DNA of 64,000 bases from Candidatus Magasanikiibacteriota bacterium (GCA_016182085.1 JACOYB010000005.1:66061-130060); one strand, 5' to 3'. Positions 36,365 through 63,128 are shown, counted from the first letter of the stretch. The notes: generated by a model not told the origin, from the sequence alone. A program made the numbers and translations.

Positions 36365-37210
36365 TTATTCAGGCACACAAGCATCATCTACTTCAACGAA
36401 CCCTCGTTTACAGTACCAACTTGATCCTAACACATAAGCGTTTGACGGTGCGATTACTTTCTCGCAAGAATTATTAACTTCCCTGTAGCCATTCTTACAA
36501 TACCAGCTTGAACCTAATATGTATGCATTCGGAGGGGCGATAACTTTTACACAAGAATCATTTTCTTCTTTATAGCCATTCTTACAATACCAGCTTGAAC
36601 CTAAAACATAGGCGTTCACTGGGGCAATTACCTTTTCACAACTATCGCCTACTTCTTTATATCCATTCTTGCAGTACCACTGAGAGCCTAAAATATATGC
36701 ATCTTTTGGGGCAATAACTTTTTCGCAAGTTTCACCGATCTGTTTGTAACCATTTTTACAATACCACTCTGAACCCAACACATAAGCGTTTAGAGGCGCT
36801 ATTACTTTCTCACAACTCTCGCCCACTTGCCTATACCCATTCTTACAATACCAATCGGATCCTAATACATAACCATTAGCAGGTGCTTTAACTTTTTCAC
36901 AGGTTTCATCAACTTGCTTATAACCATTCTTACATACCCAACCCATACCAGATGTTAATGCATTTTCTGGAACTTTCTTTAACGGACAATCATAACAGTC
37001 TTTATAATATCCGCTTGGTGGATACACAACTCCGCCACCGGCAGGATATGTTGGATATAAGCATGGATGTCCAGCATCTCCACATGTATAAGAACCAGTA
37101 TCAGAAGGACAGGAGTGCCAACGATGACAACCAGAGCGATGGGCAAAAGCAGGTGCTGATAAAGACAATACCCCTAATAAAACAACTAAAGCTAGTATGT
37201 ATTTTTTCAT
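36365..37210 (-). CDS. Secreted cysteine-rich tandem-repeat protein
   Basis: Signal peptide (AFA cleavage site). N-terminal HRSGCHRWHSCPSD motif. About 8 tandem ~27-aa repeats with consensus NAYVLGSxWYCKNGYxxVxxSCEKVIAP, two Cys per repeat. Confidence 0.7.
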   Translation of the reverse strand: MKKYILALVVLLGVLSLSAPAFAHRSGCHRWHSCPSDTGSYTCGDAGHPCLYPTYPAGGGVVYPPSGYYKDCYDCPLKKVPENALTSGMGWVCKNGYKQVDETCEKVKAPANGYVLGSDWYCKNGYRQVGESCEKVIAPLNAYVLGSEWYCKNGYKQIGETCEKVIAPKDAYILGSQWYCKNGYKEVGDSCEKVIAPVNAYVLGSSWYCKNGYKEENDSCVKVIAPPNAYILGSSWYCKNGYREVNNSCEKVIAPSNAYVLGSSWYCKRGFVEVDDACVPE

Positions 37211-54196: not shown

Positions 54197-55444
54197 ATGC
54201 ACACATCTTCACTCAAAGACTTTGATTCTGACATTTATCAAAGTATTAAAAAAGAACAACAGCGCCAAGAAGAAGGACTGGAAATGATCCCTTCGGAGAA
54301 TTTTGTTTCTCCGGCGGTGCTGGAAGCTTTAGGGTCGGTTTTAACTAATAAATATTCCGAAGGCTATCCGGGCAAACGATATTATGGCGGTTGTGAATTT
54401 ATTGATGAAGTGGAAACTTTGGCCATAGACCGAGCCAAACAACTTTTTGGGGCCGAACATGTAAACGTACAGCCTTTGTCTGGCGCGCCGGCCAATGTAG
54501 CGGTGTATTTTGCCCTACTTAAACCTGGCGACACGGTGCTTGGCATGGACTTGTCTCATGGCGGACACCTTACTCACGGGCACCCGGTAACCTACATGGC
54601 CAAAATATATAACTTTGTCCGCTATAAAACCAACGCCGAAGGATTGATAGATTTGGATAATTTGCGCCAAATGGCATTGGAGCACAAACCAAAAATAATT
54701 TTGGTTGGCTACAGCGCTTATTCACGAGAAATTGAATATGAAAAAATAAAGGCGATTGCCGATGAAGTGGGCGCGATTACCATGGCCGACATTGCCCATA
54801 TTGCGGGCTTGATTGCTGGCGGACAAATGAATAATCCGGTGCCGATTTTTGATATAGTAACTACCACCACTCATAAAACTTTGCGCGGCCCTCGCGGCGG
54901 CATGATTATGTGTAAAGAAAAATTTGCCAAAGATATAGACAAATCTGTTTTCCCCGGATTTCAGGGAGGCCCGCACGAAAACAATATCGCGGCTAAAGCA
55001 ATCGCATTTAAAGAAGCACTGGAGCCGGAATTTAAAGAATATACCAAACAAATAAAGAAAAATATAAAAGTTTTGGAAGAAGAATTGCGCAAACGAGATT
55101 ATAAATTGTGTTTTGGCGGTTCGGATAATCACCTGCTACTTATAGATGTAACACCAAAAGGCGTGTCGGGAAAAGAAGCACAAATCGCCCTAGACAAAGC
55201 CGGCATTACCGTAAACAAAAATATGATCCCGGACGACCCACGCTCGCCTATGGACCCTTCCGGTATCCGCTTGGGTACACCGGCTATCACCACTCGCGGC
55301 ATGAAAGAAGAAGAAATGAAAATGATTGCGACCTGGATAGACGAAGCGATAGCCAATCACGGGGATGATGCCAAACTGGCAGGCATAAAACAACAAGTGG
55401 CCGAGCTGACCAAAAAATTTCCACTTTACCCAACCTTGAAGTAA
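54197..55444 (+). CDS. glyA: Serine hydroxymethyltransferase
   Basis: Full-length SHMT: [37 protein letters not shown], with the PLP-lysine region [14 protein letters not shown]. Confidence 0.95.
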
Positions 55445-55463: not shown

Positions 55464-57203
55464 TTAACCGGAAACAACGTCTTCAAACTTATAGGCCTGG
55501 TAAATGCCACCCTTTCCTAACGCCGCTGTTTTTATAGATACAGAAAATAAATTTTTTTCTGTTATAATTTTTTGAACCTGTCTTACGCTGACTTTCAATT
55601 TATTTGCGATTGTTTTTATTGGACCCCAATGCTCATTAGAAGAGGGGCTGATATAAAACCCTCTCCATTCTCCCTGAGCCTCCACTTGTTTTGCTTCTCT
55701 AAGTTCTATAATTCTAGAGACACCGGATATATCTTCGTACTTATACGCCTCTACTACCTTCTGATTGAAAATATTCTTACTTTGGAAGCTGTGTTCTTCA
55801 ATTAATTTTTTAATGAGTTTGCCGCTTATTTGCAGCTTTGCAGACAAAACATTAATTGAAGCCCAGTGATCACTCTTCTCATCAACATAAAACCCTTCCC
55901 AATCTCCAGATACTTCTGCTTTAGGAATAGAAATTCGTTCTTTTATCAGGTCATTTTCTGATATTAGCTCATATGGATATACAACTGCCTTCATATTTGG
56001 AGGACAGCGAACTATTTTTGATACCAAATTCACACCTTGGCTTTTTATAATTTCTTCTACAAACTTATAACTAATTTCTAATTTATTAGCTAGTACTAGA
56101 ACTGTGCCAAAATGATTGCCGGTTTCTGGATCTATCCAAAAATTTTTCCATTCACCCGCTTTTTCCACTATAGGCAACTCTAGAATTTCTCTGACCGCTG
56201 GCAATTTAACCACGTCCTCATAAGCATACGCATTCACAAATTTTCCACCCTTTCTACGTCTAATTTCTTTAATATGAATGGTTGCCATAGCCATTAAACT
56301 ACTAAGAAAATCTTTTGATAATCCTAATTTATCTGCGATGATATTTAAAGCAGCATAATGCTTATTTGTATCCGGGTCTATCCAAAAACCTTCCCATTCA
56401 CCCGCGTCGTCTACCTGCGGCGATTCAAGATATTTTTTAACTTCTGCGGTATTTATAAAGTCTTCAAAAGAATAAGCTGCTCTTTTATGGCCAAAAACAT
56501 CCACAACAATTTTTTTCTCCAATTCTAGAGAAACAGCCATATCACTCAGGCTGCGGTAACTTCTTTTATAGGTTGCTTTTTTTATAATAGTTGTAATTGG
56601 CCCCCAGTGTTTGCCTTCCTGATCTGTCCAAAATCCTTTCCAAGGATCTAGTTCAATTTTTGATACTTGGGGCAATTCTTGGTCATTTTCAAAAGAGTCG
56701 CCCGGCGACAATTGAAGCTCTTTAAAATCTTCGTATAGCAGGCTTTCCAGTATAGCTGCCCATTTTGGCCCTTGAATAAACCTTTGTCCTGCCTGACGGT
56801 TTTGAAGTAAAAAAGTATTTTTCTCTTCTTTTGACATTGTATTAACATCGGGCACATTGACTCCGAGTTCTTGCAGATGAGCCATATCAAAAACATAACT
56901 TGCATTCCCTTCCTCATCACACACTTGTACGATTCTATTAATTTTTTCAATGACAACTGTTATATAACTAGTTTTTCTAATCATTTCTGGCGATATTTCT
57001 CCTTCAAAAATTTGGATATCGTCAAGTTCTATGCCATTATTTTGAAGCGTGTAAAGCAGAGTTTTCAATCTGTTTTTTAAATCTGCTTTTTCAAATTCTC
57101 CTTTTCCTCTAACAATCCCGTGTTTGATTGCGTCAGGCGGAGTTATGACCTGTCCAATCAGTTGGGTCTGGGTACGAATATAATCTAGTATCAATATTAT
57201 CAA
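55464..57203 (-). CDS. Tandem-repeat protein with 5-6 copies of an uncharacterised ~70-aa module (acidic W-rich hairpin plus HTH-like helix pair)
   Basis: Repeats GEWEGFWIDPDTNKHYAALNIIADKLGLS, GEWKNFWIDPETGNHFGTVLVLANKLEISYKFVEEI, GDWEGFYVDEKSDHWASINVLSAKLQISGKLIKKLIE, GEWRGFYISPSSNEHWGPIKTIANKLKVSVRQVQKII and GFWTDQEGKHWGPITTIIKKA. Confidence 0.6.
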   Translation of the reverse strand: MIILILDYIRTQTQLIGQVITPPDAIKHGIVRGKGEFEKADLKNRLKTLLYTLQNNGIELDDIQIFEGEISPEMIRKTSYITVVIEKINRIVQVCDEEGNASYVFDMAHLQELGVNVPDVNTMSKEEKNTFLLQNRQAGQRFIQGPKWAAILESLLYEDFKELQLSPGDSFENDQELPQVSKIELDPWKGFWTDQEGKHWGPITTIIKKATYKRSYRSLSDMAVSLELEKKIVVDVFGHKRAAYSFEDFINTAEVKKYLESPQVDDAGEWEGFWIDPDTNKHYAALNIIADKLGLSKDFLSSLMAMATIHIKEIRRRKGGKFVNAYAYEDVVKLPAVREILELPIVEKAGEWKNFWIDPETGNHFGTVLVLANKLEISYKFVEEIIKSQGVNLVSKIVRCPPNMKAVVYPYELISENDLIKERISIPKAEVSGDWEGFYVDEKSDHWASINVLSAKLQISGKLIKKLIEEHSFQSKNIFNQKVVEAYKYEDISGVSRIIELREAKQVEAQGEWRGFYISPSSNEHWGPIKTIANKLKVSVRQVQKIITEKNLFSVSIKTAALGKGGIYQAYKFEDVVSG

Positions 57204-57369
57204 CTGTGAGTTCTCGCTGAAGAATCTTATCCAACTGTGTTTTAAACTGTTCTTTATTCCTGAGATAATCGCTCTTAACAGATAAATCTCGTTGCGCTGT
57301 CATCTCTTCTGGTAATTTACCTGGCCTGTCACCCATACAAGTAATTAATAAATAAACTACACAGTATAA

Positions 57370-58809
57370 TTATTTTATCTCCCGCACCTCAACCAAATTC
57401 ACATGTCCCGCGTGCCCAACCGGCTCGCCGGCTACGACCACCATCTGATCTCCGGTTTTGCCAAGCTTATTTTTCTTTATATACGCAATAGACCGTTCTA
57501 CTAATTCTTCAATGGATTGGCAAGGTTCCAAAATAAACGGTACTACGCCCCAAGATAAATTGAGTTGTCTTTGCACTCTTTGGCTGCTGGTACCGACCAG
57601 AATAGACAAAGGCGGACGCACATGGCTAATAAGCCGGCCAGTTTCTCCGGAAAGAGAGGCGGCTAAAATTATCTTTGCTTTTACTTCTTCAGCCAAGATA
57701 CGGGACAGCTCGGTTATGGCTACTTCCATAGTTGTGCCGCTTTTATGAACGCCCGGTAAAACGGTATCGTCATAATGCGATTTTTCGGTATTAGCGATTA
57801 TTTCGGCCATAGTTTCTACTACCAAAACCGGATGTTTGCCTACCGCTGTTTCGTTGGACAACATGAGCGTGTCGGCATGATCTATAACCGCATTGGCCAC
57901 ATCGCTGACTTCGGCTCTGGTGGGACGGCGATTCTCCCGCATAGAATCCAGCATTTGCGTGGCCACAATTACCGGTTTTGCCAAACTATTGGCTTCGTCT
58001 ATGATTTTCTTTTGCGCGAGCGGTACTTCGGACGCATGCATTTCCAGACCCAAATCTCCACGCGCGACCATCACTCCGTCGCTGGCATCTAAAATTTCTT
58101 TTAGATTATCTACAGCTACTCGCCTTTCTATTTTGGCAATGATATGAAGCGGCGGCTGATTTTTTATTCCCAACTCGCTTTCAAATTGTTTTATTAAAAA
58201 TCGCAAATCCAGAATATCTTTGGCGCTGCGCACAAAAGACATGGCTACCAAATCTACTCCTTGTTCCAAACCAAACTTCAAATCATTTTTATCTTTAACA
58301 TCGAGAGTCTCCACATCCAAATCACTATCTGGAAAATTTAAACCTTTATGGGAAAAAATTAAACTGCCTTCTACAACCTCACCTGTTATTTTTGTGCCTT
58401 CCACACTTTTTACCTTTATCTCAATATGTCCGTCATCTACCAAAATTCTATGGCCCGCTTCTATAAATTTATGTAAGTTTTTATAATCCACCGGAATAAT
58501 TCCGTCCTTATACTCTGCCAAAGAAGTATCTAAAACCACTTCTCCGCCCACTTTAATTGGCGCGCCTTCATCCGGCATTTTTCCTACGCGTATTTTCGGC
58601 CCTTGTAAATCCTGCATGATTGCCAGCGGCTCACCTGTTTCTTCTTCTACTTTTCTTAAATTTTTTATCAAAACGGCGTGGCTGGAGTAATCACCATGAG
58701 AAAAATTTAACCTCGCAATGTTCATGCCGGCTTTTACCATATCTGTAAGCCTGGCAATATCCTGACAAGCCGGACCAATCGTGGCGCAAATTTTTGTTTT
58801 CTTAAACAT
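57370..58809 (-). CDS. pyk: Pyruvate kinase
   Basis: KTKICATIGPA...MVARGDLG, canonical PK motifs. 479 aa. Confidence 0.95.
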   Translation of the reverse strand: MFKKTKICATIGPACQDIARLTDMVKAGMNIARLNFSHGDYSSHAVLIKNLRKVEEETGEPLAIMQDLQGPKIRVGKMPDEGAPIKVGGEVVLDTSLAEYKDGIIPVDYKNLHKFIEAGHRILVDDGHIEIKVKSVEGTKITGEVVEGSLIFSHKGLNFPDSDLDVETLDVKDKNDLKFGLEQGVDLVAMSFVRSAKDILDLRFLIKQFESELGIKNQPPLHIIAKIERRVAVDNLKEILDASDGVMVARGDLGLEMHASEVPLAQKKIIDEANSLAKPVIVATQMLDSMRENRRPTRAEVSDVANAVIDHADTLMLSNETAVGKHPVLVVETMAEIIANTEKSHYDDTVLPGVHKSGTTMEVAITELSRILAEEVKAKIILAASLSGETGRLISHVRPPLSILVGTSSQRVQRQLNLSWGVVPFILEPCQSIEELVERSIAYIKKNKLGKTGDQMVVVAGEPVGHAGHVNLVEVREIK

Positions 58810-61253: not shown

Positions 61254-62519
61254 CTATGGTATGAGTGTTTTAAATAATTTTTTTACATGATCAAGTGCTT
61301 TACCCGTACCTCTAAAAACATCACCCACTCCCGACTTACCATACCCGCTGCCTGCCTGCATACTACTTCCCCATTTTACCAACCCCACAGCCGTGGCAAA
61401 ACCCAAATCATTCACTTTATCGGTAACGCTTATCACGTTAATCGGATATCCTAAATTAGTCGGCAAACGCAAAACTTTCTTAGATATTTCTACGAGCCCC
61501 GGAAGTTTGGCGCCAGCGCCGGTAAACATAACCCCGGCCGGAAGCAGGCCTGAACGTTGAATTTTTCTAAGTTCATTATCAATTTTTTGTAAAATCTCTT
61601 CCACGCGCGCGGAAATTATTTCGGTTAAATATTTCTTTTTAACAATATCGTGTTCCGGGGACCCCAATTCAAATAGATCTATCTCATCTTTTTTGGAAGT
61701 AAGATCAACCCGACAATCCCCATTTTCCAATTTTACACGCTCCGCAACATCTACCGACGTTCGCAGCCCTACGGCAATATCATTGGTAATGAGCTGGGAA
61801 CCGATTGGAATAATAGCTGTATGAATTAACTGCCCCTCTTCAAAAACGGCCAGACTGGTAGTTGACCCGCCAAGATTAACCACCATCACGCCTAATTCTT
61901 TCTGACGTTTAGTTACAACTGTTTCAGACGTGGCAATAATAGATAACACCAAGTCTTCAATATCAAGACCGGCGCGGTATACGGCTTTAGTTAAATTCTT
62001 TATTTGTGAAGATGAACCTAAAATTATTTGAGTGTCGACTTCCAAGCGTACGCCCGTCATTGAAGTTGGGTCTTTAATGCCCGACTGGCCATCAACCGTA
62101 TAATGCTTCGGCAGGACGTGCAGCACTTCATAATTAAGCGGTGTTGCGATTGATCTGGCGGCTTCTACAGCTCTTTGTATATCTTCTTCAGCTATTTCGT
62201 TATTGGCTTTGGAAACCGCAATCACACCTTTGCTGTTTTGGGACAAGATGTGCAGCCCGGATATCCCCACCCAGGTACTATCTACAGGAACCCCCACCAT
62301 TCTTTCCACTCTTTCCAAACATGCAGAAACGGAAGACACGACGTCTTCAATGCTATTTATTACCCCTTTTTGCACGCCATCTGAAGGAAATTCAGCTGCG
62401 CCTAAAATTTGCAATTCCTGGGCGCCAGCTTCTTTATCTATAAGCTGACCTACAACCATGCGCACAAAATTAGAGCCAATATCCAGTCCGCTAATTAAAT
62501 TGCCTTGATTTTTTCTCAT
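61254..62519 (-). CDS. ftsA: Cell division protein FtsA
   Basis: Actin/ASKHA fold: ISGLDIGSNFVRMVVGQ N-terminus and MFTGAGAKLPGL. Start set at the Met of MRKNQ, because the longer ORF N-terminus is a translation of the upstream repeat. Confidence 0.9.
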   Translation of the reverse strand: MRKNQGNLISGLDIGSNFVRMVVGQLIDKEAGAQELQILGAAEFPSDGVQKGVINSIEDVVSSVSACLERVERMVGVPVDSTWVGISGLHILSQNSKGVIAVSKANNEIAEEDIQRAVEAARSIATPLNYEVLHVLPKHYTVDGQSGIKDPTSMTGVRLEVDTQIILGSSSQIKNLTKAVYRAGLDIEDLVLSIIATSETVVTKRQKELGVMVVNLGGSTTSLAVFEEGQLIHTAIIPIGSQLITNDIAVGLRTSVDVAERVKLENGDCRVDLTSKKDEIDLFELGSPEHDIVKKKYLTEIISARVEEILQKIDNELRKIQRSGLLPAGVMFTGAGAKLPGLVEISKKVLRLPTNLGYPINVISVTDKVNDLGFATAVGLVKWGSSMQAGSGYGKSGVGDVFRGTGKALDHVKKLFKTLIP

Positions 62520-62740
62520 AAACGAAATGAGTGAGTGAAGTGACAAGCTTGCTTGATCACTTCCGAACGAATAAGTTTATATCGCGGATATAATCGAAAT
62601 GAGTGAGTGAAATGTCTGGCTTGCCAAGACATTTCCGAACGAATAAGTTTATATCTGCTATATAAACGAAATGAGTGAGTGAAGTGACAAGCTTGCTTGA
62701 TCACTTCCGAACGAATGAGTTTATACCACAGATATAAGTT
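62520..62740. repeat. 3 tandem ~72-nt structured repeats abutting the ftsA start codon
   Basis: Unit: AAACGAAATGAGTGAGTGAA-[hairpin]-TTCCGAACGAATAAGTTTATAT. Hairpin GTGACAAGCTTGCTTGATCAC in units 1 and 3 versus ATGTCTGGCTTGCCAAGACAT in unit 2. Stems differ but the structure is conserved. Confidence 0.8.
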
Positions 62741-62759: not shown

Positions 62760-63128
62760 TCACCATTTAAACAGGTCTTTCAAATAGGGGTACAGGATCA
62801 TAACTCCCACAACCAGAGCTACCAGGGAAGTTAGAAGCACCGCTCCAGCCATTACATCCTTGATTACATATACATAATGATGTAATCGGGGTTTGAGCAA
62901 ATCACTGAAATACTCAAAAACCGTATTTAAAATTTCTACGAGAAGCACCAGAAACACTAAAAGAATTACAAGTATCATTTCCCAGGTTTGCAGCGGTAAA
63001 AAAATTGCAGCTACTAAAACCAGCGCTCCTGCCACAACTTGAATTCTAAAATTTTGTTCTGATTTAAAAACATGCCCCAGTCCCCGGCCCGCGGCGGCAA
63101 AACTTTTTACTAATCTGGATAAAACCAT
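62760..63128 (-). CDS. dgkA: Diacylglycerol/undecaprenol kinase (DgkA family)
   Basis: 122 aa, three TM helices. Prokaryotic DAGK motif region EILNTVFEYFSD. Confidence 0.75.
   Translation of the reverse strand: MVLSRLVKSFAAAGRGLGHVFKSEQNFRIQVVAGALVLVAAIFLPLQTWEMILVILLVFLVLLVEILNTVFEYFSDLLKPRLHHYVYVIKDVMAGAVLLTSLVALVVGVMILYPYLKDLFKW

Follow-up and report, generated by a model that had tools for sequence, protein, structure and literature searches.

A disrupted Magasanikbacteria gene and its candidate phyla radiation family, with a conserved head and interchangeable repeat tails, among them arrays of predicted winged-helix modules

This analysis concerns a locus at positions 55464-57336, on the minus strand, of a 64,000-nucleotide stretch of Candidatus Magasanikiibacteriota DNA (GCA_016182085.1, JACOYB010000005.1:66061-130060; hereafter the window, from whose first letter all positions are counted). 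It comprises two overlapping open reading frames (ORFs), ORF A and ORF B, which sequence comparison indicates to be parts of one gene that belongs by descent to a protein family of the candidate phyla radiation (CPR) and is incomplete in this copy. In the reading that we favor, with moderate confidence, the locus is a deleted copy of a gene for a conserved head domain followed by an array of winged-helix modules, and this array, or tail, would act as a DNA-binding chain. The family is uncharacterized and restricted to the CPR/Patescibacteria; its repeated module is of a known kind, and the multi-copy arrangement is unusual. A full-text literature search recovered no description of the family, the only relevant item being the analogous protein BldC (see below). 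The original prediction for this region (55464-57336), a large repeat protein whose annotated start is overlapped by a 67-residue ORF at 57133-57336 in another frame, described both ORFs correctly:

ORF B, 55464..57203 (-): 579 aa, counted from the first possible start, TTG at 57203
ORF A, 57133..57336 (-): 67 aa, ATG start, in a frame that differs from that of ORF B

The two ORFs overlap by 71 nt (57133-57203), and the guanine-plus-cytosine (GC) content is ~40% across the locus and its surroundings. The homologues recovered in the first search (27 proteins) have ~130 more N-terminal residues than ORF B. Residues 28-50 of ORF A (KEQFKTQLDKILQRELTVDNIDT) are identical to residues 17-39 of the homologue P0005 at 15 of 23 positions (E 2e-7), and residues 7-24 of ORF B (DYIRTQTQLIGQVITPPD) align with 'DFIRKNIQYIDEVITPPD' of P0003; between these two match points all 14 aligned homologues have ~66 residues that are absent from the window. 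A profile of the head run against the six-frame translation gave the same picture, matching ORF A with its positions 13-42 (E 8e-6) and the ORF B frame with its positions 100-265 (E 5e-61), with no match for positions ~43-99 in any of the six frames. The missing segment corresponds to residues 41-106 of P0003, that is helices 2-4 of the head as placed by its AlphaFold2 model. The same DNA reads DNIDT/RLYSY… in frame A and …LIL/DYIRTQ in frame B, which places the junction at 57186-57190. Frame B is offset by a single base from frame A, from which a length of 3n+2 nt, or ~197-200 nt, is deduced for the missing piece. The locus can thus be divided as follows:

ORF A residues 1-50, 57187-57336 (-): the family's native N-terminus (helix 1 of the head)
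ORF A residues 51-67: out-of-frame read-through of the DNA encoding ORF B residues ~6-23
Deletion junction, 57186..57190 (-): …DNIDT / LDYIR…, with ~66 codons plus 2 nt absent
Retained head part, 56715..57203 (-), ORF B residues 1-163: end of helix 4, ITPPD strand and α/β core

The suggestion that the gene extends upstream, by way of a frameshift or a sequencing error, was therefore right in that ORF A is the true N-terminus of the same gene, but the event is a deletion of ~200 nt. A single-base frameshift or simple indel near 57130-57210 is ruled out, because ~66 codons found in all 14 aligned homologues are missing in addition to the change of frame; the homologues examined are single uninterrupted ORFs with no such change. 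The concern that the upstream ORF might lack a coding signal in relatives is answered by the family signal present in ORF A, both in the pairwise comparison (E 2e-7) and with the head profile (E 8e-6). Elsewhere the gene shows no damage, with an open frame of 579 codons and all nine family-invariant residues of the retained head part in place. Thus, the lesion is either very recent, tolerated, or an artefact of assembly or of a minority variant. No intact allele was found among 5.8 billion clustered proteins, in which the next best match is 44% identical. This copy probably represents a recent pseudogene or an N-terminally truncated variant.

The family is defined by an alignment of the head (A1, ~265 aa) with the signature VCDEEGNASYVFD, in which C-x-E-x-x-N is invariant; in a full-length member this head is followed by 3-9 tandem modules of ~80 aa. 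Homologues come from CPR lineages, are single ORFs of ~510-910 aa (mostly 530-910 aa), and the closer ones are 33-44% identical to the window protein in the best local alignment. The invariant residues of the head are Y60, E75, L91, G167, R175, Y179, C194, E196, N199, F204, K224 and G238 (P0003 numbering), and the nine that the window retains are G167, R175, Y179, C194, E196, N199, F204, K224 and G238. The conserved motifs of the family head are ITPPD, RLKTLLYIL, MMR..SY and the signature; the retained part of the window head has RLKTLLY, MIR..SY and the signature. The structure model of the head is confident (predicted local distance difference test score, pLDDT, 85.3; predicted template modeling score, pTM, 0.79) and has four helices within residues 10-111 and an α/β core at residues 143-262, separated by a disordered loop. 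None of the 27 members has a Pfam match of note in this region, nor does the head match any NCBIfam or PHROG entry; a search of PDB sequences with the head profile returned coiled-coil noise only, and the model has no Foldseek match at E ≤ 0.001. A pattern scan of species-representative genomes recovered 38 loci, no two from one assembly and nearly all from CPR/Patescibacteria. The family is represented in Saccharibacteria, Minisyncoccia/Paceibacteria, Microgenomates-type genomes, and Kerfeld-, Gracili-, Shapiro-, Moran-, Nomura- and Magasanikbacteria. Four contigs of 1.8-13.7 kb that carry the head (L016, L018, L020 and L031) are binned in metagenome-assembled genomes (MAGs) of Gammaproteobacteria or Coriobacteriia; given how short they are, these are probably mis-binned CPR contigs rather than signs of a wider distribution.

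The C-terminal part of ORF B consists of five tandem repeats of 76-83 aa, with pairwise identities of 21-34%:

Repeat 1, 56424..56669 (-), aa 179-260: 'ELDPWKGFW' variant, which opens the array in nearly all homologues aligned
Repeat 2, 56178..56423 (-), aa 261-342: unit used for the structure model (pLDDT 90.6)
Repeat 3, 55929..56177 (-), aa 343-425: 'AVVYPYEL' variant, orthologous by position to repeats of P0003, P0005, P0006 and P0017
Repeat 4, 55695..55928 (-), aa 426-503: match to the repeat profile
Repeat 5, 55467..55694 (-), aa 504-579: last unit and the most basic one, with a net charge of +5

Every unit contains a GEW(K/E)GF(W/Y)xD…H(W/F/Y) segment, with the W.GF[WY] motif at ORF B residues 188, 270, 352, 435 and 513, and an A.KL.(I/V)S segment, in agreement with the two segment types (GEWEGFWIDP-like and HW(G/A)...NxLAxKLxIS-like) originally described for each repeat. 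The repetition far exceeds what chance would give: aligned locally with BLOSUM62, the units score 68-123 against one another, compared with 24.3 +/- 4.7 (maximum 46) after shuffling, and a profile built from 80 repeats of other proteins, with the window excluded, finds five matches of 67-73 bits each in the window protein. The tandem repeats of the original prediction are therefore real, but number five rather than five to six and are longer than the ~70 aa proposed. Each of the five window repeats has its counterpart at the same position in P0005 (scores of 139-185 on the diagonal and 45-129 off it), and window repeats 1, 3, 4 and 5 correspond to the four that each of P0003 and P0006 contains. 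As this positional orthology persists between proteins that are only 42-44% identical, the arrays are old, with each position under its own constraints, which fits a model in which each module has its own target.

Modeled by AlphaFold2 from an alignment of 85 sequences, repeat 2 has a confident predicted structure (pLDDT 90.6, pTM 0.78) that shows, in order, an N-terminal hairpin, a strand, two helices, a two-strand wing and two short helices. This is the β-α-turn-α-β-β (wing) topology of the winged helix-turn-helix (HTH) of the MerR/excisionase type, as found in MerR-family regulators, mycobacteriophage Xis, TorI, GlnR/TnrA, the HTH domains of small terminases and BldC. On the strength of the model, the repeat is predicted to be such a winged HTH with an added acidic Trp/Phe β-hairpin (GEWKGFYxDxxGxHW) in front. 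The sub-threshold Pfam matches of single repeats are almost exclusively to the HTH clan (HTH_11, HTH_36, MerR_1, P22_Cro and HTH_50); at E ≤ 0.1 they involve HTH_11 in 8 of 85 repeats, HTH_36 in 5, and MerR_1 and P22_Cro in 4 each. The near-invariant residues W10, F13, H22, Y66 and E69 occupy core positions of the hairpin and wing, and the recognition helix is variable. Basic residues cluster at helix 1 (Lys or Arg in 88% of repeats), in the recognition helix and in the wing; the hairpin is acidic. The HTH resemblance proposed earlier for one half of the repeat thus stands, but the type, given as sigma-70 region 4 or KilA, does not, the model being of the winged MerR/Xis kind. Sigma-70 region 4 was rejected on the lack of any Sigma70_r4 or r4_2 family match and of a purely helical HTH without a β wing, and a KilA-N/Bro-N antirepressor on the lack of any Pfam or PHROG match for the window protein or P0003.

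The tails attached to the head are of several kinds. We surveyed 120 head-bearing proteins, with crude ad hoc profiles for types 2 and 3, whose counts should be read accordingly. Type 1 (GEWKGFY, as in the window) is present in 91 proteins in 1-9 copies, most often four, a count biased by the fact that the search profile was itself of type 1. Type 2 ('PEGFLS…LGVS…YSPEQQ') is found in 14 proteins, one of which (P0025) matches HTH_11 at 73 bits against a Pfam cut-off of 25, and type 3 ('FLSFEDF…WY…WPS.P…YK.GW.G') in six, with a weak match to INT_rpt. Two distant relatives from other Magasanikbacteria MAGs (L042, 3644-5077, and L039, 3722-5338) keep the α/β core (VCNEEGNATF) but have a different N-terminus; the tail of L042 is of yet another type, 'APEGWxT…HPEWF', and so is that of L039, 'FN..WLK.NGY'. 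At least four to five unrelated types of tail repeat replace one another on one head.

The same repeats also occur apart from the head. Searching 1.84 billion representative proteins with the repeat profile gave 559 proteins at E ≤ 1e-3, of which 113 reach E ≤ 1e-30, and 67 of 187 proteins retrieved lack the head. Five of them, presumably of CPR origin (P0087, P0102, P0110, P0116 and P0141; 1300-2000 aa), carry 8-13 repeats N-terminal to SNF2-rel_dom and Helicase_C domains and usually also a Methyltransf_11 domain, an architecture for which we found no description. Three ResIII/DEAD helicases (P0148, P0178 and P0179) have C-terminal arrays of the type 1 repeat, and some further headless proteins (450-620 aa) contain little besides 5-8 repeats. 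The hairpin plus winged-helix module ('G.YTD..G.EW…LG.S…LY', 8-13 copies) is thus shared with CPR SNF2-methyltransferase and ResIII/DEAD proteins, in which the repeats differ in being shorter (~65-70 aa) and in lacking the first Trp (GEW). Independently, the APEGW tail of L042 recurs at the C-terminus of seven further ResIII/DEAD helicases (P0222, P0234, P0239, P0242, P0244, P0246 and P0247), and the BLASTP matches of L042 to ResIII helicases cover query residues ~221-477, that is the tail only. The presence of two independent tail types on superfamily 2 (SF2) helicases is the best available argument for the tails as nucleic-acid-targeting arrays, and supports that role.

Combining these observations, we infer that the tail would be a string of DNA-binding winged helices joined in one polypeptide and laid out along the duplex, in which every module would use its recognition helix and basic wing to contact a site of its own, comparable to the way free BldC or Xis monomers line up head-to-tail on direct repeats. 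Such an array could anchor the head on DNA or target it there, and the head might then act as an effector or as an oligomerization or partner-binding domain. In the window copy, a 3n+2-nt deletion (~200 nt) would have cost the head its helices 2-4 and left the gene in two pieces, ORF A and ORF B.

Several observations weigh against this reading. The deletion is known only from assembled sequence. No repeat, in the window protein or among the 85 single repeats, attains the gathering score of any Pfam HTH family, the best Pfam HTH match of the window protein (HTH_36) scoring 17.7 bits where the cut-off is 25, and the repeat profile gave nothing significant against PDB sequences. The window protein has an isoelectric point of 5.87 and a net charge of -8, proteins of the family are acidic overall, and the repeats average a net charge of ~0; acidic proteins with approximately neutral repeats are unusual for a non-specific DNA binder. 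Finally, when conserved neighbors were sought by clustering the ORFs at 44 loci, no neighbor family was found in more than three loci.

Among the alternatives, it is possible, but less likely than not, that the split between ORF A and ORF B is an artefact of assembly or of a minority variant in the MAG, and that the gene of the organism is intact and ~66 codons longer. The otherwise healthy state of the gene, with ORF B open over 579 codons at ~40% GC, is consistent with this, as are the match that ORF A still makes to the family and the fact that the retained head has kept its nine invariant residues and every near-invariant one that was checked; moreover, the sequence is known from one contig only. 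On the other hand, the usual homopolymer or indel error does not remove ~200 nt of unique coding sequence, the junction is clean with family sequence readable on both sides, and the clustered proteins contain no intact allele, the next best being the one at 44% identity.

A rather unlikely alternative is that the repeats share the shape of winged helices without binding DNA, and instead bind proteins or other ligands or simply serve as a scaffold. We have greater doubts about the proposal that the head is a new nuclease or DNA-modifying enzyme with the swappable arrays as its target recognition modules, either in the manner of homing endonucleases with NUMOD/HTH modules or as a conflict or selfish gene. 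The invariant polar residues C194, E196, N199, R175, Y179 and K224 cluster in the α/β core, and this Cys/Glu/Asn/Arg/Lys/Tyr cluster allows an enzymatic role, for which the fold offers no evidence. The exchange of tail types, the copy number of 1-9 and a genomic position that differs in every genome point in the same direction, as does the disruption of the window copy, since a selfish or conflict gene would also explain its decay.

Two further explanations are very improbable. A phage or mobile-element antirepressor, a KilA/Bro-type regulator or a sigma-factor-like protein would account for the HTH-like segments and for the weak PHROG matches of a repeat-only relative (P0094) to phage DNA-binding proteins, but the window protein and P0003 match no PHROG and none of the Pfam families KilA-N, Bro-N and Sigma70_r4, no match was found in phages, plasmids or IMG/VR, and the neighbors (glyA and pyruvate kinase) are of the housekeeping kind. 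Likewise, programmed +1 ribosomal frameshifting could join ORF A and ORF B into a functional shortened protein, given the 71-nt overlap (57133-57203) and an ORF B frame that is open back to ~57299, but the two-frame arrangement is not conserved in the homologues examined, which are single ORFs and differ from the window by a 66-residue segment rather than by a conserved shift site, and as no relative shares the arrangement there can be no conserved slippery site.

Returning to the reading of a deleted head-and-array gene, its surroundings are unremarkable. The gene is a stand-alone chromosomal one, with no recognizable operon, defence island or prophage. The flanking genes, which we take from a reading of their translations to be serine hydroxymethyltransferase (glyA; 54197..55444, plus strand) and pyruvate kinase (57370..58809, minus strand), are both housekeeping genes. 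The head profile found no match in IMG/VR, the repeat profile being too variable for a scan of viral contigs, and the protein has no match in INPHARED phages or PLSDB plasmids. The NCBI entry, from a Candidatus Magasanikbacteria MAG, gives ORF B a length of 534 aa and an internal TTG (57068) as its start, under the name 'hypothetical protein HYT15_02915'; the position of the real start relative to the annotated one is uncertain. Just upstream of that TTG lies a tandem repeat of a 13-14-nt unit in ~3 copies (57062-57105; minus strand aagcagatttaaaa…), which is in the 5' part of the ORF B coding region and is probably low-complexity coding sequence.

When repeats that might be DNA targets were sought within the window, only unrelated tandem repeats were seen. 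The window contains an intergenic 72-bp tandem repeat at 62518-62737 (3.1 copies, 80% matches), flanked by minus-strand ORFs at 61254..62546 and 62760..63128; each 72-bp unit holds an imperfect palindrome (gaagtgacaagcttgcttgatcacttc), and the repeat has no Rfam match at E ≤ 1. An 87-bp DNA tandem repeat at 36408-36938 underlies a 281-aa protein (36365-37210, minus strand) with a signal-peptide-like N-terminus and about six 29-aa Cys repeats (YVLGSxWYCKNGYxxVxxSCEKVIAPxNA).

With respect to annotation, HYT15_02915 is mis-started and merits a 'disrupted' flag, and ORF A belongs to the same gene. More generally, chains of 3-13 winged helices are uncommon, and neither Pfam, NCBIfam and PHROGs nor the PDB contains the family. 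It spans many CPR lineages, and its head has a confident predicted fold with no detectable relative. The swapping of tails and their recurrence on SF2 helicases lead to a testable hypothesis of multi-site DNA targeting in organisms whose chromosome biology is almost unknown. A bolder proposal, to which we give little credence at present, is that the CPR possess a toolkit of interchangeable tandem arrays (hairpin plus winged-helix, PEGF-HTH, INT_rpt-like, APEGW and others), in which each module reads its own short site, and that these are plugged onto SNF2-methyltransferases, ResIII helicases and the present head, which would then be a new enzymatic or effector fold delivered to chromosomal sites. 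If true, this shared array toolkit would amount to a naturally occurring modular system for targeting DNA.

The combination of one constant part, catalytic or effector, with small tandem DNA-recognition modules in variable number is also seen in homing endonucleases with NUMOD/HTH modules and in transcription activator-like effector (TALE) arrays. The present family shows no homology to either, its head lacks a detected nuclease fold, and a code of one module for one site is only proposed for it. At the level of the single module, the closest known counterparts are the MerR/excisionase-type winged HTH domains (Pfam HTH_17 and MerR_1; Xis, TorI, AlpA and the MerR N-terminus), which occur once per chain, whereas the family modules come in 3-13 linked copies, have the extra conserved acidic Trp/Phe β-hairpin in front, and fall below the Pfam thresholds. 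The Dachshund/Ski DHD domain is eukaryotic, single-copy and 8% identical, so that the resemblance is confined to the fold. The MerR-like BldC of Streptomyces (68 aa) and the filaments of lambda-type Xis are assembled on DNA from free monomers, BldC building head-to-tail multimers on direct repeats (PMC5859096); in contrast, the modules of the family are fused, mutually divergent (21-34% identity) and joined to a large head, and their DNA binding is a prediction. RacA in chromosome anchoring, pSK1 Par in centromere binding and DdrC in the DNA-damage response have one winged helix per chain and attain multivalency by oligomerization; none has a sequence relationship to the family or a CPR-type head, but the tethering proposed here for the array may be likened to the multivalent tethering by RacA or pSK1 Par.
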